Shown: positions 62 through 8,544 of the stretch, one piece after another
Layout: every line of letters begins with the position of its first letter
How positions within the stretch are numbered: the stretch's first letter is position 1
The notes under the pieces: model-generated
Told to the model about the DNA's origin: nothing
The model's input: the letters and a program-made list of their open reading frames with translations, nothing else
Databases searched by the model: none
Translations under genes and position numbers: made by a program
NCBI RefSeq assembly: GCF_024700885.2
Contig: NZ_CP117016.1
Length of the DNA: 64,000 nt
Strand: one strand, 5' to 3'
Source of the DNA: Escherichia coli
Lineage (GTDB): Bacteria > Pseudomonadota > Gammaproteobacteria > Enterobacterales > Enterobacteriaceae

Positions 62-403
62 TCAATGGTTGCCACCGTTAGCATTCAGTAACGGTAGTGC
101 CAGCACAATATCCACCAGGGAACGATCAGAAACCGTCGATAAATCACAGACCGGAGGCAGATTATCCGCGCGTTCCGTATCAATAAGCGTTCCGTCCGGG
201 AAACGAACAATCAGACGGGTGGCATTCAACCGTGAAAGCGGTAACAGAGAGTCATCAAACTCTGCAGCCACCACGCCCCATGGATGCGCCAGCCCCATTC
301 TGGCAACGCTGTCTGCCAGATGAACATCCCAGGCAGCCTGCTGCTGAAACTGCTGGGGCATCAGAAAAGCCCCGTCTTCCCATAGTGGGCGATAAATCTT
401 CAT
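62..403 (-). pseudogene. tssK: T6SS baseplate subunit TssK, 5' portion; frame breaks after codon 113 (TGA TAA) while another frame stays open to the window edge
   Basis: N-terminus MKIYRPLWEDGAFLMPQQFQQQ fits the TssK family start; lies 16 nt downstream of tssC on the same strand; the 113-codon length is far short of TssK as I recall it (~445 aa). Confidence 0.5.
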
Positions 404-1984: not shown

Positions 1985-2482
1985 TCACGCCTTTTCCGGC
2001 ACCAGTGCACGCAGTTCATCACGCAGCGTCTGACTCAGTGCCGGGTCACGCAGAATTTTTTCCAGCTCTTTACGGAAAGTCACGTTATCCAGCAGATTGG
2101 CTTTCAGGTCCCGCAGAAGGCTACGCATGGCCAGCATGGCTTTAAGACGGGGAATCTGTCGGGCGACCTGCTCTGGCGTGAAATCGTTCATATTGCGGAA
2201 AGTCAGGCTGATGCTCTCTTCAGAGCCATCACCGGCAAGCGTGTTCTCCACATTCAGATGTACAGACGGGGAGATATCTGCCAGAACATCATTAAAATTG
2301 TTTTTATTAATATCCGTTTTTACACGCTCTGACAGTGGACGCTCTTCCTGTCCGTTACTGAAATCACCGGCAACCAGAAGTTTGAGCGGAAGCTCCACTT
2401 TCTTCTGCCCACCACCCGTATGTAGGTCTAATTTCAGATTTACCCTTGCTTTCGGGATTTCATTCTGAAACGAACTGCTCAT
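1985..2482 (-). CDS. tssB: T6SS contractile sheath small subunit TssB (VipA)
   Basis: Segment KARVNLKLDLHTGGGQKKVELPLKLLVAGDFS is TssB-like; start placed at internal Met (MSSSFQNE) preceded by AGGAGA; ORF track extends to 2506. Confidence 0.8.
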   Translation of the reverse strand: MSSSFQNEIPKARVNLKLDLHTGGGQKKVELPLKLLVAGDFSNGQEERPLSERVKTDINKNNFNDVLADISPSVHLNVENTLAGDGSEESISLTFRNMNDFTPEQVARQIPRLKAMLAMRSLLRDLKANLLDNVTFRKELEKILRDPALSQTLRDELRALVPEKA

Positions 2483-2558
2483 GGCTCTCTCCTGTGAAAC
2501 CTGCATCTAAGGGGTTCCATCACCGCAGATGCCTCCCCTTGTGCACTGATTTAATTTT

Positions 2559-2611
2559 GATCATTATAGGACGAAGATCTGAAAAATCTCAATATGACAG
2601 ATACATCGATC
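2559..2611 (-). promoter_or_regulatory. AT-rich tssB upstream region with three GATC sites and a Fur-box-like half site (GATCATTAT)
   Basis: GATC at 2559, 2576 and 2608, about 80-130 bp upstream of the tssB start; a Fur/Dam switch is reported for the EAEC sci1 T6SS promoter. Confidence 0.3.
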
Positions 2612-2988
2612 GATATAACGCAAATAATCAGGACTTTATTCTATGGAATGTCGCAAAATAATGAATATTCAAAGCTTATAACCATTGTTAATGTAAAAAT
2701 ACAGAAAATTATTCCACAAAACACTTTTGATACAGCCAGTTAACATAAACACTGTATTTTCTTGATTTCAGTCATTGAAAATCACAATGAGTAAAGTTTC
2801 AGCAGCATTGACGTGATTTCTGGAAAGCGGGAAAGATATGGAGGAAGGGCCCAACAAAATGCAATGAAAGAAGGAGTGAGGGGATTTCTAGTAAAAACAG
2901 AAGATTAACAAAACACATCAGGAGGCAGAGACTCCTGATTCAGTGCTACCACATGAAAATTTAGTTAACTGTTACCGTTCTGAAATCT

Positions 2989-3180
2989 ATGTCAGAAGAT
3001 ATTCCATTACCGAAAATCAATCAGCGATACAGAGACGATCATGGTGCGCTTGTCACCGTGACCAGTGTTGAGGAAACCCGGGTGGTGTTTATGCGGGACG
3101 GCTATCCGCATCCCTGCATGCGACCGATGTACAACTTCCTGGGAAAATTCAAACCCGAACCCCGGGAAGAAACAGAATAA
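2989..3180 (+). CDS. small hypothetical protein (63 aa)
   Basis: ORF only; no clear Shine-Dalgarno. Confidence 0.25.
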   Translation: MSEDIPLPKINQRYRDDHGALVTVTSVEETRVVFMRDGYPHPCMRPMYNFLGKFKPEPREETE

Positions 3181-3232
3181 AACGAAATCCCTGCCGGCAA
3201 TCACATTGCCTGATGGCAGCATAATCCACTTA

Positions 3233-3541
3233 TTAATTCTCATCCCCGGAGACAAGCCCTGAAAACCACTCCGGGTGTTCACTGTATGCTGTGTTCAGCG
3301 CATCCCAGGAAACGTTGATATAAAAGCTGTCCTGCAATTTCCGGGTAACCACCTCTGCCAGGCGGTTCCGGTTACCCACCAGTCCGGCATAACCTCTCTC
3401 TGCCAGCCACTCATTCAGTTCATGTTCCAGAGACAGATTGATAATATCGTAATCGGACCTTGCCATTCCCGTTTCCTTAGCACATGTTTTCAGGCACGGG
3501 GATAAAGTATAAAGAATGTCGTACTGCTGCTGCCAGAGCAA
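3233..3541 (-). CDS. hypothetical protein (102 aa; possible internal start at MARSDYD)
   Basis: Last ORF of a co-directional minus-strand gene string 6023 to 3233. Confidence 0.35.
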   Translation of the reverse strand: MLWQQQYDILYTLSPCLKTCAKETGMARSDYDIINLSLEHELNEWLAERGYAGLVGNRNRLAEVVTRKLQDSFYINVSWDALNTAYSEHPEWFSGLVSGDEN

Positions 3542-3561
3542 TATTCCCCCTGATGGTTGTA

Positions 3562-4221
3562 TCAGAGATGGTATGCCGGTACTTTGCGGGTTGTTCCTGT
3601 CAGGTTATCGTGCACCTCCACGGTCGTGGTCACCACCGGCATTCCGGCCTTTCTCAGCCTCAGAACATCAGCCGCAATACGCTGACTGCCAAACCAGAAC
3701 AGGCCGTCCAGTGCAGTCACCAGTAAACCCGCCTCCAGTGCATACTTCAGCCGTTCACGGGGCGCTTTCACTTCCCGGGCAACCTGCTGATATGGCAATG
3801 ATGTGTTTTCATTCCCAACCACGCGACGAATACGATGAGACAGATGATACCGGAATGTATCCGGCACACCAGAAAGGCTGGCCTTCAGGCTGTACACGCA
3901 GCCAAACCGTTTATCGTTAAACACCACATTTTTCTGGCTGATTCCCCATTCTTCACGCAGCGCAGCAATCAGTTGTGGTGTACGGGTAAGCAACAAGCGA
4001 AAAGGCAGTTCAAAACTGGTGACGTAATCCACATTCAGCAGTGCAATACGCAGCCGTTCTTCTGGCCCGGCCTCTGTCTGCCGGCACTCCTCCAGAACAT
4101 CCTGCCACTGCTGGCGAAGACGGGGCGATTCGTTCCGTTCTGTAAAACAGTATTTATCCGCCAGATAGTCAATTTGTGTACGCATACTGAAGAGCATTCC
4201 GTATAAAGATTCAGCTGACAA
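3562..4221 (-). CDS. hypothetical island protein (219 aa)
   Basis: Uninterrupted ORF in the same minus-strand string; no motif recognised. Confidence 0.45.
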   Translation of the reverse strand: MSAESLYGMLFSMRTQIDYLADKYCFTERNESPRLRQQWQDVLEECRQTEAGPEERLRIALLNVDYVTSFELPFRLLLTRTPQLIAALREEWGISQKNVVFNDKRFGCVYSLKASLSGVPDTFRYHLSHRIRRVVGNENTSLPYQQVAREVKAPRERLKYALEAGLLVTALDGLFWFGSQRIAADVLRLRKAGMPVVTTTVEVHDNLTGTTRKVPAYHL

Positions 4222-4493
4222 AACTTTATCAGTCCATAAGAATCAACGGAAGCACCGATGGTTCACCTGGTCATCACCAAGTTTTGCCATAACCGGTAGC
4301 AATGATCATTCTGTGTAACTATTTGCCCGCAGATGATGATGTTTATCGATGTCTCCCCTGTCTGAATGTCGCATAAAGAGGATCATCAGCAGACACAGCC
4401 AGTGAGCCACCGTCCGCGGAACAAAGCGCCGGACCACATCCGGATCCGGCAGGGGCATGACTGGCATGATCAAGTAATTATGTCGCATCTCCC

Positions 4494-4967
4494 TCACTCC
4501 TGGTCCCGGAGCAAATCTGGCTGGTATCTGTAAACATACTTCGTACATGCCGCTCTGCAATAAATCCCCGTGCCACAGGCTTCACAGAACTTTTTCCCGG
4601 AAAAATGCTGCCCGCACATCACACAATGCCACTCCAGCACGACAGGTAATGGCGATAAAAACATCGCCATATCATCAATGTAAGGATGGGATTTTTCCGG
4701 ATTCAGCACCACGCAGGCCGCCTTCTGTTGCGCGCTCAGGGCATGTAAATCGTGCTCAAACCACGCCCCCTGAGCATCTGTCTGCAAAATCAACCGGCCA
4801 CGACAGGAAAGACAGAAACAATGCCGGATATTTCTGCTGAGCGCAGAATCGGCACTGATAATGTGCTCACCCGGCGTGATCCCAGCCCCGTTTTTATACC
4901 GTTCATTCTGCAACCACCTCCTCACTGAAGCGCCCTGTATGACAGTGTGTGCAGTACTGCTCCCCAT
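4494..4967 (-). CDS. Cys-rich (multiple CxxC) putative zinc-binding protein, 157 aa; may be the 3' half of a frameshifted gene
   Basis: CFCLSC and CVMCGQ...CEACGTGIYCRAAC motifs; overlaps the upstream Cys-rich ORF by 65 nt in another frame. Confidence 0.4.
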   Translation of the reverse strand: MGSSTAHTVIQGASVRRWLQNERYKNGAGITPGEHIISADSALSRNIRHCFCLSCRGRLILQTDAQGAWFEHDLHALSAQQKAACVVLNPEKSHPYIDDMAMFLSPLPVVLEWHCVMCGQHFSGKKFCEACGTGIYCRAACTKYVYRYQPDLLRDQE

Positions 4968-5292
4968 AATAATCGTGGTGACATTGTCTGCAGTGCCAGC
5001 TGGCTTTACGCACTACGGGTAAGGCGTTCGGTACGAATTGCCGTAAGCGTTTAATCAACAGTATTTCTCTGCGCTCCGGTCTGACATAAGGGCACTCATG
5101 ACCATGCTCAGTCAGCCCGTCGTCAGTGTGTTCAAACCAGGGACGTTCAGTGTCGTATTGCGGGTGGTATCTGAGAGCACTGCCACAGAGGTGGCAGGTG
5201 TAACGATCGTATGGCGCTGTCTGTGCGGTACGGGCGCCGGTCAGACGTCCGTTGCCATCAAGTGCGAGAAAGGATTTTGCGTACATCGTCAT
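4903..5292 (-). CDS. Cys-rich (multiple CxxC) putative zinc-binding protein, 129 aa; may be the 5' half of a frameshifted gene
   Basis: CHLC, CRQCHHDYYGEQYCTHCH motifs. Confidence 0.4.
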   Translation of the reverse strand: MTMYAKSFLALDGNGRLTGARTAQTAPYDRYTCHLCGSALRYHPQYDTERPWFEHTDDGLTEHGHECPYVRPERREILLIKRLRQFVPNALPVVRKASWHCRQCHHDYYGEQYCTHCHTGRFSEEVVAE

Positions 5293-5453
5293 ATTCCTCA
5301 GCCGCCAGACGACACGCAGGCAACAGCCGTCCCGGTACGGGCAGCGTGGTCAGGGTGTGAATGGCGGTTTTCAGTTCAGTCTCAGAAGGGAAAATCAGTG
5401 TGGTCGCTGTGAACACGTCATCACACTAAGGTCAGATAAGTCGTCTGTCGGGC

Positions 5454-6023
5454 TCAGCCACGACTGCAGCCAAAGTTGCGCTCACCGGTGCCGTAAGCTT
5501 TGGTACTCTCCTTCGCCAGATAGTCAGCACGCTCCAGCACCTGCTGAAAGCCGGTGTCATCATCGCGTTCCAGCCACACCGCCGGCCTGACCGGAAAATG
5601 CGCCAGCGTGGTATGATCTCCGGTATCCACTCCCAGGGCACTGCACCACGCCTGTTTAATCATCCCGGCCAGTGATCCCGGAGCGCGGTAATCGCCGGCA
5701 CGACACCAGGTATCCCGGTTGACCAGCAGCATCAGGTGATAGTGTTTTTTACCTTTGCACTCCCCAAACTCCCGGGCCCAGACGTAATGCAGGGTTGTGG
5801 GATGCACGCGTTTGCCTTCACGGCGCTTACGCTTCTGATAAGCATCGATTCGGGCTTTCAGGGCATTGATGAAGCGGGATATCACTGCTGCGTCAGTTGC
5901 TGCCGGTACATCCGGGAGACGCAGGTCAATCCGCAATGCCGTCAGACGGGGATGAACATCCAGTGCGCGCAGCACCGTCTCACGGATACGTTGTTGCCAG
6001 AAGGGGTTGTATTTGTAGGTCAT
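5454..6023 (-). CDS. YagK/YfjJ-family (inovirus Gp2-like) island protein
   Basis: Resembles K-12 prophage YfjJ/YagK proteins as recalled; start at MTYKYNPFWQQ has GGAG 8 nt upstream; ORF track extends to 6098. Confidence 0.6.
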   Translation of the reverse strand: MTYKYNPFWQQRIRETVLRALDVHPRLTALRIDLRLPDVPAATDAAVISRFINALKARIDAYQKRKRREGKRVHPTTLHYVWAREFGECKGKKHYHLMLLVNRDTWCRAGDYRAPGSLAGMIKQAWCSALGVDTGDHTTLAHFPVRPAVWLERDDDTGFQQVLERADYLAKESTKAYGTGERNFGCSRG

Positions 6024-6221
6024 GGTTAAATCTCCGTATGGTTCATACGGAATAGCCACGTCGTAAAAAATGCGCAGAGTCCCTGAAGTGACCTCCAACC
6101 GGGCAATATCTCAGGCACTCTGTGATAACCCGATTGTCGTCTCCGGACTGACGGTTGAATTTTCAGCGTTGTTTTTTTAATGTAAAAAACCGGTTACGGG
6201 TAAGGCTGTGAGGAGGGAGTG

Positions 6222-6422
6222 ATGGTGATACGCAAAAAGAAGTGCAGGGACTGTGGAAACGCGATTACTCATAATACTGTGTATTGCCCGTATTGTGGTT
6301 CTGTCGACCCCTTCGGCTATTACCGGAATACAGACCGTATCGTTACCATACTGCTGGCACTGATTATTGTGGTCCTGCTGACTACTGTCAGCGTCAGTGT
6401 GTATATACTGTGTAGCTGGTGA
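6222..6422 (+). CDS. small zinc-ribbon membrane protein (CxxC...CxxC then hydrophobic helix)
   Basis: AGGAGGG Shine-Dalgarno 4 nt before ATG; CRDCGN...CPYCGS then ILLALIIVVLLTTVSVSVYIL. Confidence 0.4.
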   Translation: MVIRKKKCRDCGNAITHNTVYCPYCGSVDPFGYYRNTDRIVTILLALIIVVLLTTVSVSVYILCSW

Positions 6423-7648
6423 GATAACGGTTCATGTATCCCCTGAGCTGACAGTGTACCGGTTATATTAAGCGTAACCGACAGGTTCTCCTTCATACCA
6501 TATTAAATTTTTCCAGGTATTGCCGCTGCCTTATTTCGTCCCATACAGGAAAACTCGTCTGGGTTTCTGACAAATACGTGAAACTCACAGCCCCTCAATA
6601 TCAACCACACGCTGTAAGCCGGTAATACCTGAAAATCAGCCTATTACCGCCCACGCCTCCGGCACTATTCCCTTTTGATTTCGAATTCTTTGTTGTCGCT
6701 ATACCGTGTAACATCACCGATACCACACACCGGCACAGATAACACCGGACTTATCGTAGCGCTGCTTCAATATTCAGGTGACATATTTCCAGACGGAAGC
6801 CGGCACGCGATCGTAAAATTTGCGGTCAGTTCTGCCAGCCGGTTGTCAACGGCAGAGTTAAAGGCTTCCAGCTCCGCAAGGGTAAGTTTATAACGCGTGT
6901 GGGAATTCACTTTTCCCGCGTCTCCTGACGTATTACGGGCTGCCACTTACCTGGTGTCCCGCAATACAGCCTTAGTGTTCCGTTATCGGGGATCCGGACG
7001 CACCGCAACAACCGGGGAAGTATTTCTGGTTAGAGCTGTGTCAAGAGGGATTTCTCAGCCCCTCACTCACCGGCTCAGTTTCAGGGCAGGAGCATTAATA
7101 CGCTCAGTTCATGTCTTATACAGGAATGGGCATAGGGGGAGCTGGCGTGTCACTGCTGATTTTACGCATCAGCGTTCATGTATTTGCACTCTGATACAGA
7201 ATGCTTCACAGCGCTCTGTTACCGGAGAGATTTACTCTCTTAGGTTATTCTGGCAAATCCTTTACGTTACTCTCTGATAACTTCTTATATTTATAATACC
7301 AATCAGACAGCCTTATCCCACCAGTGATACCTGTCCCGGCCCACAAGGCACGGGCTGCCCCACCGTAACTGCCCCGTAAATAACTCTGCAATTATCAGAA
7401 CGCCAGTTTTCCCCTCTTCCTCACGAAAATCATCCCTTCTTTATCGCGCGCGCGTGCGGAAGCATCGTTTCGTAACAACCACCCGGCATACCGGTACGGC
7501 TCAGCCACCGTAACCTCCCCGTTTATCTCCTGGCGGTCACATTCCCGATTATTTTTTACGTTTCTCCCCGGTTGTTATGCCGGTGAAGGTGGTGCGTTGT
7601 TTTCATGACCACACCGGCTGGTTTAACAACATCCGGAGGAACATTCTC

Positions 7649-7855
7649 ATGATCACCCCAGTTTCACTGATGGATGACCAGATGGTCGACATGGCATTTA
7701 TCACTCAACTGACCGGCCTGACCGATAAGTGGTTTTACAAACTCATCAAGGATGGTGACTTTCCTGCGCCCATCAAAATGGGCCGCAGCTCCCGATGGCT
7801 GAAAAGCGAAGTGGAAGCCTGGCTGCAGGCGCGTATTGCACAGTCCCGTCCGTAA
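7649..7855 (+). CDS. alpA: AlpA-family prophage transcriptional regulator
   Basis: LTGLTDKWFYKLIKDGDFPAPIKMGRSSRWLKSEVEAWL is the AlpA HTH signature; GGAGGA Shine-Dalgarno before ATG 7649. Confidence 0.8.
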   Translation: MITPVSLMDDQMVDMAFITQLTGLTDKWFYKLIKDGDFPAPIKMGRSSRWLKSEVEAWLQARIAQSRP

Positions 7856-7935
7856 TTCTTAACCGTTCATCTGCAACAGACGCAGTCTCCGGCCTGCCGG
7901 CGGCGTTCTGCTGCCTGTTATCCCCCGTGAGGAAT

Positions 7936-8544
7936 ATGAAAATGAAACCACAGTATCAGACCCGTTACGAGCTGCTCCACGAAAGCTACCAGAAATGGCT
8001 GACCGGCTTCACCCGGCACGCCGTATCCTGGGGCGTGTGTCATCCGAATATCTACTACTTCCATAATCTGACGCCCGGGTGGGTGTCATTCAATGGTGAA
8101 AAACCGGAGATTGCCATCGTACCCCAGAGTCTGCACCGGCTGATTTATGGTCCGGACAAACGGACCACGCCGCCCCTGGATGATGATCTGATAGTGAATT
8201 TATGCACCAGTGAACATCTGCTGGTTCATCATCCGATGCTGGAAGGCATTCTCCTGTCTGAATGTGAACGTCTGAGGCAGCGTTCGCTGGCAAATAAACT
8301 GATCAGCCTCTTCCGTCAGTTTGGTGGCACGGAGTTGCGCCTCAAACTGGTCTGGCTTTGCTGGCTTGATTTAATGACCGGAAACTGCCTTGACGACTGG
8401 ACGGAGAATCTGAAACGGAAATCAGAAAAAGAGCTGGAGGAATGGATCATCAACCGTCAGAAGCAGAGCGCAGCACTGACGGATCTGATGGATCAGTACG
8501 TGCTCCTGGCATACCGCACAACGGTTGACGATAAGCGCACCTGA
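7936..8544 (+). CDS. hypothetical protein (202 aa) downstream of alpA
   Basis: ORF with GTGAGGAA Shine-Dalgarno before ATG 7936 (start MKMKPQYQ). Confidence 0.5.
   Translation: MKMKPQYQTRYELLHESYQKWLTGFTRHAVSWGVCHPNIYYFHNLTPGWVSFNGEKPEIAIVPQSLHRLIYGPDKRTTPPLDDDLIVNLCTSEHLLVHHPMLEGILLSECERLRQRSLANKLISLFRQFGGTELRLKLVWLCWLDLMTGNCLDDWTENLKRKSEKELEEWIINRQKQSAALTDLMDQYVLLAYRTTVDDKRT

Follow-up and report, generated by a model that had tools for sequence, protein, structure and literature searches.

The closest described counterparts of the locus analysed here are the CP4-6 and CP4-57 elements of Escherichia coli K-12. Their genes yagK (CP4-6) and yfjJ (CP4-57) share the YagK_YfjJ_C domain with a gene of our locus, and they have the same backbone as its surroundings, comprising alpA, yfjI, the yfjP GTPase gene, yfjQ/DUF932, an antirestriction gene, a RadC-like gene and a type IV TA system. 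In CP4-57 the genes adjoining yfjJ are variable and defence cargo, whereas the adjoining cargo in our locus is a T6SS. Both K-12 regions, as inspected, lack DUF7828/zinc-ribbon genes, ECs1377 and the 77-aa gene described below; besides yagK and yfjJ, no homologue of any gene of the string was found in CP4-6 or CP4-57, and yagL, yagM and yagN, with which an earlier note on this DNA had suggested a comparison, are not homologous to any of them.

A related organization has been put forward for the tmRNA-integrated islands I23, I44 and I55 of Pseudomonas, whose proposed core consists of an integrase, AlpA, an inovirus-Gp2-like protein, RadC and an HTH protein (bioRxiv 10.1101/2024.08.29.610337). 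Between these core genes lie defence systems and further cargo, and the islands are transferred by jumbo-phage transduction. They belong to another genus and occupy another integration site than the island described here, and the passages of the preprint that were consulted outline their core without naming zinc-ribbon (DUF7828) or ECs1377 genes. A further parallel is offered by HUH endonucleases and RCR initiators (filamentous-phage gpII, REP_ORF2-G2P, Rep_1), whose HUH motif (HYH plus hydrophobic residues) and YxxK motif also occur in the YagK-like family. The families YagK/YfjJ, DUF7828 and ECs1377 are all very common in E. coli, and our literature search found no functional studies of ECs1377, DUF7828, Zn_ribbon_11 or YagK/YfjJ; ECs1377 was met in CGH work only, and YagK and YfjJ merely as y-ome genes.

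The window, that is, the whole stretch of 64,000 nucleotides that was analysed, matches E. coli MLI114 at 100% identity and EAEC 042 at ∼97%. The earlier note had described a string of uncharacterised island genes, five minus-strand ORFs lying between a T6SS promoter and alpA, and this description stands: the ORFs are found at 3233–3541, 3562–4221, 4494–4967, 4903–5292 and 5454–6098 (102, 219, 157, 129 and 214 aa as first read, the last running over 5454–6023 if counted from its ATG), and the two Cys-rich ones overlap by 65 nt (4903–4967). Homologue alignments and RefSeq annotation indicate that the likely true genes are shorter, namely 77 aa (3233–3466), 207 aa (3562–4185), 127 aa (4903–5286) and 189 aa (5454–6023), while the 157-aa ORF is the frameshifted form of a 137-aa gene starting at the ATG at 4906. 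Two extra small ORFs were called by PGAP. The features of the locus are as follows:

2547–2988, minus strand: AT-rich region with the Sci-1 T6SS promoter, containing a −35/−10-like site at 2592–2563 flanked by GATC (scan score 11/12)
2989–3180, plus strand: DUF4222 gene, convergent with the string (PF13973, 5.4e-23)
3233–3466, minus strand: 77-aa gene with the start called by PGAP, of which the 102-aa ORF is an upstream extension from a TTG (dN/dS 0.13)
3562–4185, minus strand: ECs1377-family protein, 207 aa (NCBIfam NF052300, 327.7 bits against a curated cutoff of 190)
4306–4488, minus strand: 60-aa ORF, ‘hypothetical’ in PGAP, of doubtful coding status (dN/dS 0.74; no match in family searches)
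4494–4906, minus strand: ZnB, paralogous DUF7828 + Zn_ribbon_11 gene, a pseudogene here (PF25165 1e-20, PF11682 1.8e-16)
4903–5286, minus strand: ZnA, intact, 127 aa, two predicted zinc sites, DUF7828 + Zn_ribbon_11 (PF25165 1.2e-30, PF11682 1.2e-8)
5258–5416, minus strand: 52-aa ORF, ‘hypothetical’ in PGAP, of doubtful coding status (unannotated in one related strain inspected)
5454–6023, minus strand: YagK/YfjJ-like protein (‘inovirus Gp2 family’), 189 aa, putative HUH-type nicking/replication-initiator protein (PF11726, 8.9e-48)
7649–7855, plus strand: alpA, AlpA-family regulator, divergent from the string (PF05930, 1.8e-8)

On the T6SS side, tssB/tssC lie to the left of the string, and Sci-1 with Tle1/Tli1-EAEC is followed by the aai cluster; on the other side come alpA, YfjI, a GTPase, Ag43, DUF932, an antirestriction gene, a JAB/RadC-like gene and CbtA/YeeU. 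The absence of an integrase, also claimed earlier, holds for the window, in which no tRNA was found either, and does not carry beyond it, since the locus sits within a very large EAEC island that runs on through both the Sci-1 and the aai T6SS clusters. An Rfam scan of 2400–8000 gave no match at E up to 0.1, and repeat and promoter/terminator scans found nothing beyond shuffled expectation save the Psci1-like site and two terminator-like hairpins on the minus strand (3166–3154 and 2939–2917). With one strain as reference, at ∼5–10% nucleotide divergence in the genes concerned, dN/dS was 0.13–0.20 for ZnA, ZnB, the ECs1377 gene and the 77-aa gene (0.17 for ZnA, and 0.17–0.20 for ZnA and ZnB), a signature of purifying selection which indicates that these four ORFs are real genes.

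The assignment of the first gene to the YagK/YfjJ type proved correct. Its product scores 162.9 bits with PF11726, far above the gathering cutoff of 25.8, and is 39% identical to K-12 YagK and 36% identical to YfjJ. In an alignment of six sequences sharing 36–47% identity, the residues H119-Y-H121 and Y193xxK196 (H94/H96/Y168 in the numbering of the 189-aa protein) as well as an RNFGCS motif are invariant, so that the protein combines the metal-binding HUH motif and the catalytic Tyr motif of the HUH/RCR Rep superfamily. The family matches the RCR initiator profiles weakly but consistently: REP_ORF2-G2P was matched by all six members tested (best 1e-7) and Rep_1 by one (3.8e-4), although the window protein itself, at 25.8 bits, remains below the REP_ORF2-G2P cutoff of 27.8. 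Neither single-sequence nor profile searches against PDB sequences gave a match. Compared with HUH/RCR initiators, the YagK-like protein, whose nicking activity is putative, is far smaller (∼190 aa) and comes from a chromosomal island devoid of phage genes. Its allele is swapped between strains (34% amino acid identity) while the neighbouring genes stay 88–96% identical.

The two Cys-rich ORFs had been read as possibly a single zinc-finger gene, frameshifted and some 285 aa long. A frameshift does exist, within the 5′ part of the second gene, yet the single split gene does not, since each ORF contains a full DUF7828 and a full Zn_ribbon_11 domain. Scores for PF25165 and PF11682 are 105.4 and 34.8 bits in ZnA and 73.6 and 59.9 bits in ZnB, all above the gathering cutoffs (25.7 and 24 bits), and the two paralogues share 24–28% identity. 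ZnA shows the conserved motifs CxxC..WFEH..C and WxCxxC..CxxCxTG, and its AF2 model has a pLDDT of 87.7. For the zinc-ribbon proteins, two Zn per monomer are predicted, at C33/C36/H55/C67 and C101/C104/C114/C117. In a search of 1.84 billion representatives the family turned out to be small (170 representatives) and stand-alone, its members being nearly all 120–160 aa long. Moreover, other strains have annotated intact tandem genes (127 + 137 aa) that overlap by ATGA, and of 5426 E. coli genomes 1410 contain the ZnA–ZnB pair. The start codon of ZnB (ATG, 4906–4904) overlaps the stop of ZnA in the window too. Alignment with homologue DNA places the lesion at 4881–4883, where a 1-nt deletion turns GGGG into GGG (CTGGGATC in the window against CTGGGGATC in the intact allele) and the frame is lost after codon 9; intact 137-aa homologues start MNGIKTGLGITPGEH. 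It is because of this deletion that the two ORFs overlap by 65 nt, and PGAP annotates ZnB as ‘frameshifted’ in both MLI114 and 042. A first guess from the sequence, which had placed the frameshift at an A5 run (ATAAAAAC), was discarded in favour of the G-run. Rescue of ZnB from other starts appears unlikely, as the in-frame TTG at 4913 lies only 2–3 nt past a Shine–Dalgarno-like AGGAGGT and the ATG at 4967 has no Shine–Dalgarno-like sequence.

Distant zinc-ribbon homologues (∼30% identity) lie in a co-directional trio, YagK_YfjJ_C–AlpA–zinc-ribbon, which is followed by variable cargo; the trio was seen on contigs with enough upstream flank, and one of the loci is a rearranged, duplicated variant. 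The cargo comprises OLD-TOPRIM + UvrD (Gabija-like), DUF3375 (Wadjet-like/JetA-like), an ars operon, SMEK/CTD10/MC6/DUF2326 together with an integrase and, on a Klebsiella plasmid, RND efflux genes. In contrast to these relatives, alpA is not placed between the YagK-like and zinc-ribbon genes in E. coli. To judge from these comparisons of sequence, the zinc-ribbon genes are conserved backbone and not variable cargo.

In the left part of the string, the ECs1377 protein, which exceeds the curated cutoff of its family by a wide margin, yielded a confident structure model with a C-terminal winged helix; unlike in winged-helix transcription factors of the ArsR/MarR type or Stf76, this is preceded by a 125-aa N-terminal domain that found neither a structural nor a sequence match, and the whole protein retrieved nothing from PDB sequences by single-sequence or profile search. 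We consider that ECs1377 is most likely a transcription factor. Outside Escherichia the family retains 58–72% identity in over 20 genera, and each of the 79 full-length matches at species level covers nearly the whole protein. No conserved neighbour emerged over 78 loci, the largest cluster being a LysR-type one at 20 loci, and where an ECs1377 gene borders a tRNA, no att-like repeat of the 3′ end of that tRNA, of at least 14 nt, was detected nearby. Homologues in other genera are mostly solitary and adjoin core genes, an arrangement that better matches an autonomous regulator than an island function. In E. coli and E. albertii, the 77-aa gene travels with ECs1377 and DUF4222, and this block is conserved with or without the T6SS and also occurs without YagK or zinc-ribbon genes. 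At the edge of the block, homology with T6SS-less strains stops near 2546, and the alignment to strains with other cargo breaks just past the −10 of the Psci1-like site, which belongs to a region (2547–2988) falling inside the Psci1 fragment of PMC3145626.

The gene string is unremarkable backbone, catalogued before, of a pathogenicity island of E. coli. The reading we favour, with a probability of roughly 0.55, is that it represents the backbone conserved in integrative islands of the CP4-57/CP4-44 type and is made of two modules that are also found separately, for which a part in island replication or mobilisation and in regulation can be proposed. The island is here of the EAEC type, with its Sci-1 and aai T6SS clusters. 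Module 1 (4494–6023) encodes a small, putatively HUH-type protein followed by one or two zinc-ribbon proteins. The former might nick the island DNA after AlpA-driven excision, leading to rolling-circle-type replication or transfer, and the latter could be zinc-binding accessory factors without enzymatic activity that attach to nucleic acid or to protein. Their genes sit at the border where variable cargo inserts, and the second of them is knocked out in this lineage by the 1-nt deletion. Module 2 (2547–4185) consists of the winged-helix protein of the ECs1377 family, presumably DNA-binding, the 77-aa protein and DUF4222, and ends at the promoter under Fur/Dam control from which the T6SS is driven here.

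Three other explanations deserve consideration. The earlier note had pointed out that such island modules are frequent locations for phage-defence genes, which is true of related islands: these hold defence genes beside the zinc-ribbon gene (Gabija-like OLD-TOPRIM + UvrD, DUF3375/JetA-like, SMEK/CTD10/MC6), and in K-12 CP4-57 AbpAB and RnlAB adjoin yfjJ. Since nuclease-like and zinc-finger proteins are also frequent among defence components, the string, wholly or in part, might be an undescribed anti-phage defence or anti-defence system. Nevertheless, PADLOC-DB v2 gave no match below E = 0.01 among 10 proteins (best 11 bits, E = 0.03), and across the related islands the YagK–AlpA–zinc-ribbon set is invariant, while the defence genes next to it vary. 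Between a quarter and two-thirds of E. coli genomes contain the block, often as several copies, for which a backbone is a better fit than a patchy defence gene, and ZnB is dispensable in this lineage; we therefore regard a defence function as quite improbable. The search for prophage genes was likewise negative, with no tblastn match of ZnA in 50,697 phage records and PHROG matches limited to families of unknown function (for the YagK-like and ECs1377 proteins). The possibility that the module is simply decaying has more to recommend it, as ZnB and tssK are frameshifted, only a remnant of Hha is left, no integrase lies nearby, and IS elements and pseudogenes are scattered throughout the island; these signs suggest that the module may be non-functional in this strain. 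That all the genes are remnants of a cryptic element without current function in this strain seems rather unlikely to us, however, given that purifying selection acts on ZnA, ECs1377 and the 77-aa gene, all three of them intact (dN/dS 0.13–0.17), that the ECs1377 family is so well kept across genera, and that the YagK-like gene has preserved its HUH and Tyr motifs.

The remaining alternative concerns the left half of the string, which would belong to the T6SS locus if ECs1377, alone or together with the 77-aa protein and DUF4222, were a dedicated regulator of the adjacent Sci-1-type system. In Citrobacter werkmanii, Kosakonia radicincitans, Kosakonia sacchari and Serratia oryzae, just as in the window, tssB-tssC-tssK-tssL do have an ECs1377 orthologue immediately upstream and in the same direction, and both the predicted winged-helix DNA-binding domain and the termination of the E. 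coli block in the Psci1 promoter would suit such a role. This adjacency is not conserved across taxa, though: T6SS genes occur within 10 kb at only 5 of 80 species-level loci, and the block is joined to tssB in just 191 of the 2340 E. coli genomes that bear it, preceding two-partner-secretion genes or IS in other strains. In addition, the promoter sequence is not kept in other genera, and control of Psci1 has been ascribed to Fur and Dam, without the ECs1377 protein (PMC3145626, PMC13262931). A dedicated T6SS regulator is accordingly an unlikely reading. A bolder extension of the reading that we prefer, rather improbable, is that excision, nicking and replication or transfer in an unrecognised, widespread family of enterobacterial integrative islands are driven by an engine composed of the YagK-like HUH protein, AlpA and the zinc-ribbon protein, and that ECs1377, the 77-aa gene and DUF4222 with the Fur/Dam promoter constitute a portable regulated expression cassette placed ahead of cargo. 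Such islands would deliver defence systems, resistance operons and T6SS clusters at a fixed cargo slot, and the zinc-ribbon protein would be the sequence-specificity subunit of the engine.

For the window itself, the outcome is mainly a clean-up: the Cys-rich region contains two genes, the second of which is a pseudogene, and no recognisable defence system is present. The wider value is modest but real, in that the YagK-like/AlpA/DUF7828 trio flags where a cargo slot begins in the islands of enterobacteria and could hence serve as an anchor to mine cargo and defence genes.

The gene string between the Sci-1 T6SS promoter and alpA is a composite of modules that also occur apart: the YagK/YfjJ-like gene with the zinc-ribbon genes ZnA and ZnB (Module 1, 4494-6023), and an ECs1377-family gene with a 77-aa gene and DUF4222 (Module 2, 2547-4185). 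An ORF listing recovered the five minus-strand ORFs reported in an earlier note on this DNA, together with the 65-nt overlap of its two Cys-rich ORFs, and the shorter, annotated starts of the ECs1377-family and YagK-like genes were backed by homologue alignments.

ORFs of the gene string
3233-3541, minus strand: 102-aa ORF; RefSeq start shorter (77 aa, 3233-3466)
3562-4221, minus strand: 219-aa ORF (ECs1377 family); RefSeq start shorter (207 aa, 3562-4185)
4494-4967, minus strand: Cys-rich 157-aa ORF (ZnB); RefSeq 4494-4906, flagged frameshifted, 'putative zinc ribbon protein'
4903-5292, minus strand: Cys-rich 129-aa ORF (ZnA); RefSeq start shorter (127 aa, 4903-5286)
5454-6098, minus strand: YagK/YfjJ-like ORF, 214 aa; 189 aa counted from the ATG at 6023
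4306-4488 and 5258-5416: two extra small ORFs in the RefSeq annotation

RefSeq already contains the window sequence, with the published genome of EAEC 042 among its records; region 2500-8000 is 100% identical to strain MLI114 and ~97% to EAEC 042 and O104:H4 strains. All genes belong to catalogued families (Pfam PF11726, PF25165, PF11682 and PF13973; NCBIfam NF052300), the island is of a familiar type, and nothing in the string departs from the known kind. No PADLOC model was matched by any protein searched, which leaves the suggestion of a phage-defence function without direct support.

Both Cys-rich ORFs carry complete DUF7828 (PF25165) and Zn_ribbon_11 (PF11682) domains, far over the Pfam cutoffs, and among 170 relatives found by exhaustive HMMER search of 1.84 billion representatives the near-full-length matches are nearly all 120-160 aa long. 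Since ZnA and ZnB share only 24-28% protein identity, we regard them, judging by sequence, as old tandem paralogues and not as the halves of one gene; the description of the string in the earlier note stands, but its idea of a single frameshifted zinc-finger gene of ~285 aa does not. The motifs conserved in the family (N-terminal domain, CxxC...WFEH...C; C-terminal ribbon, WxCxxC...CxxCxTG) point to two candidate metal sites per protein, and dN/dS was 0.17 for ZnA and 0.20 for ZnB, as measured against one strain with ~5-10% nucleotide divergence in the compared genes. The tandem pair is found at ≥80% query coverage in 1410 of 5426 complete E. coli genomes, while only ~55 records hold an allele ≥95% identical to that of the window. 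Homologues of ZnA were absent from 50,697 phage records and present in only 33 of 72,556 plasmid records, and a structure search with its predicted model (pLDDT 87.7) returned no significant neighbour.

Intact ZnB homologues are 137 aa long, with the N-terminus MNGIKTGLGITPGEH. The ZnB start, an ATG at 4906 that overlaps the ZnA stop (ATGA), encodes MNGIKTGLG before the frame is lost, and DNA alignment (CTGGGATC in the window and 042 versus CTGGGGATC in the intact allele) locates the break in a 1-nt deletion within the G-run 4881-4883. The 157-aa ORF, and with it the 65-nt overlap, arises solely because, by chance, the shifted frame has no stop codon upstream as far as an ATG at 4967, which lacks a ribosome-binding site.

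The contigs of six distant ZnA relatives (~30% identity) place these genes in a recurrent setting. A co-directional trio, YagK_YfjJ_C, AlpA and Zn-ribbon, appeared in all four loci with enough upstream flank for canonical order; a fifth shows the trio in rearranged and duplicated form, and the upstream flank is missing from the sixth. Unrelated cargo follows the trio, differing by locus: an OLD-TOPRIM ATPase with a UvrD helicase (Gabija-like); HTH_26 with DUF3375 (Wadjet JetA-like); an SMC-like ATPase; an ars operon; SMEK_N/CTD10-MC6-DUF2326 and then an integrase adjoining the core gene prlC; and, after Gp2-AlpA-Zn-Zn-Gp2 on a Klebsiella IncF/IncHI1B plasmid, an RND efflux operon. On the opposite side lie GTPase, DUF932 and antirestriction genes, the same set that flanks the module in the window. 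Constant trio and varying cargo together identify the zinc-ribbon genes as invariant island backbone bordering a cargo slot, not as cargo. The E. coli alpA does not lie between the YagK and Zn genes, being divergent at 7649-7855.

On Klebsiella pneumoniae plasmid pRWS291.s3 (locus L103, IncFIB/IncHI1B; NZ_CP110517.1 73958-84113), Gp2-AlpA-Zn-Zn-Gp2-DUF2913 stands directly upstream of the RND operon, predicted adeF-like by RGI, so that the island backbone can carry resistance genes to plasmids.

The YagK/YfjJ-like protein scores 163 bits against PF11726 and is 39% identical to K-12 YagK and 36% to YfjJ, confirming the earlier assignment. The proposed comparison with the K-12 CP4-6 yagK-yagN run proved pertinent to yagK only: no CP4-6/CP4-57 homologues of the remaining genes were found, and yagL/M/N are thus irrelevant. 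A six-member family alignment (36-47% identity) retains as invariant HYH with hydrophobic residues after it, Y193xxK196 and RNFGCS; Pfam REP_ORF2-G2P is matched by all six members (best 1e-7), with the window protein 2 bits under the cutoff, and Rep_1 by one. On these motifs and matches, the protein is read as a putative HUH-type nicking or Rep-like protein. Compared with the E. coli island L094, the YagK-like alleles (5454-6023 versus 7166-7765) share only 34% protein identity, whereas ZnA, ZnB and ECs1377 are 88-96% identical, a difference that indicates a recombination breakpoint separating the YagK-like gene from ZnA.

Module 2 likewise has a life of its own. A STEC-like strain has ECs1377-77aa-DUF4222 but neither YagK nor Zn genes. 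Among 2340 E. coli genomes matching a tssB-ECs1377 query, most contain block 2547-4185, with tssB attached to it in just 191. By its NCBIfam match the 207-aa protein belongs, at equivalog level, to the 'ECs1377 family', whose orthologues lie directly upstream of tssB in Citrobacter and Kosakonia; we therefore tested whether it might be a T6SS regulator. This remains a minor alternative, since in a survey of one genome per species (80 loci, >20 genera) T6SS genes fell within 10 kb of ECs1377 in only 5 of the 80 loci, and no conserved neighbour emerged across them, the flanks being mostly core genes. Several copies directly adjoin tRNA-Arg(CCT) at its 3' end and some are close to tRNA-Phe or tRNA-SeC, all classic island integration sites; no att-like repeats of ≥14 nt were found near the tRNA-adjoining genes.

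In five Citrobacter and Lelliottia loci (L012, L016, L022, L027, L051), 25-90 nt separate the ECs1377-homologue stop from the tRNA-Arg(CCT) (argW) 3' end, with alaC/ypdAB-side core genes on one flank and yfdC/mlaA/fadL-side genes on the other; Kluyvera L059 is similar, ~800 nt apart. Some Citrobacter genomes hold a T6SS cluster or remnant between ECs1377 and yfdC/mlaA/fadL, at the place of argW in related strains. Two ECs1377-family matches in assemblies with non-enterobacterial species labels look like contamination or mislabelling: Macrococcus carouselicus L072 (94% identical, 422-bp low-coverage contig) and Chryseobacterium sp. 18061 L088 (AlpA/YagK/Zn surroundings of enterobacterial type, almost the same as in L084).

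The Sci-1 promoter core (TTGAGA-18-TATAAT at 2592-2563, with clustered GATC sites; 2547-2760, minus strand) lies within the Fur/Dam switch fragment (PMC3145626). It is ~85-90% conserved in E. coli strains L094 (3945-4225) and L104 (8890-9170), homology ending ~15 nt past the −10, and in T6SS-less strains two-partner-secretion genes or an IS follow it. With the core kept beside non-T6SS cargo, this epigenetic-switch promoter seems to belong to a portable island block rather than to the T6SS cluster. Past the window's left end (L102, NZ_CP117013.1 886747-895274), GIY-YIG nuclease and 3'-5' exonuclease genes, a ShlB/FhaC remnant and PAPS-reductase, IbrB-like and PerC-family genes lie downstream of Sci-1; in T6SS-less L104, what comes after the ECs1377 block likewise includes POTRA/TPS, PAPS-reductase, IbrB-like and PerC genes, which suggests a cargo region that was already in place and either gained the T6SS by insertion or lost it by deletion. 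The tssK ORF (62-403, minus strand) stops after 113 aa versus 445 aa in 042 and is frameshifted in MLI114 according to PGAP, so this strain may lack a functional Sci-1 T6SS. The interval from the YagK-like gene to alpA contains an Hha/YmoA-family remnant (~6774-6913, minus strand), frameshifted and truncated at its N-terminus, in the position of an intact hha paralogue in EAEC 042 and beside a 67-aa zinc-ribbon protein (6219-6422, plus strand) whose sequence reads as having a hydrophobic C-terminal tail.

From domain content, motifs, synteny and selection we infer, with moderate confidence, the activities of both modules. Module 1 would serve a CP4-57-type integrative island in nicking and in replication or mobilisation, its HUH protein and zinc-ribbon accessory factors acting together with AlpA-controlled excision, and Module 2 a winged-helix regulator cassette ending in a promoter that would drive the adjoining cargo. 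The flanking GTPase, DUF932, antirestriction and RadC-like genes presumably resemble plasmid leading regions, a likeness that suggests ssDNA transfer by the island as one possibility. For Pseudomonas islands, one study proposes the same core as here, comprising integrase, AlpA, an inovirus-Gp2-like protein and RadC (bioRxiv 10.1101/2024.08.29.610337), an analogy that supports reading these genes as a general 'island core'.
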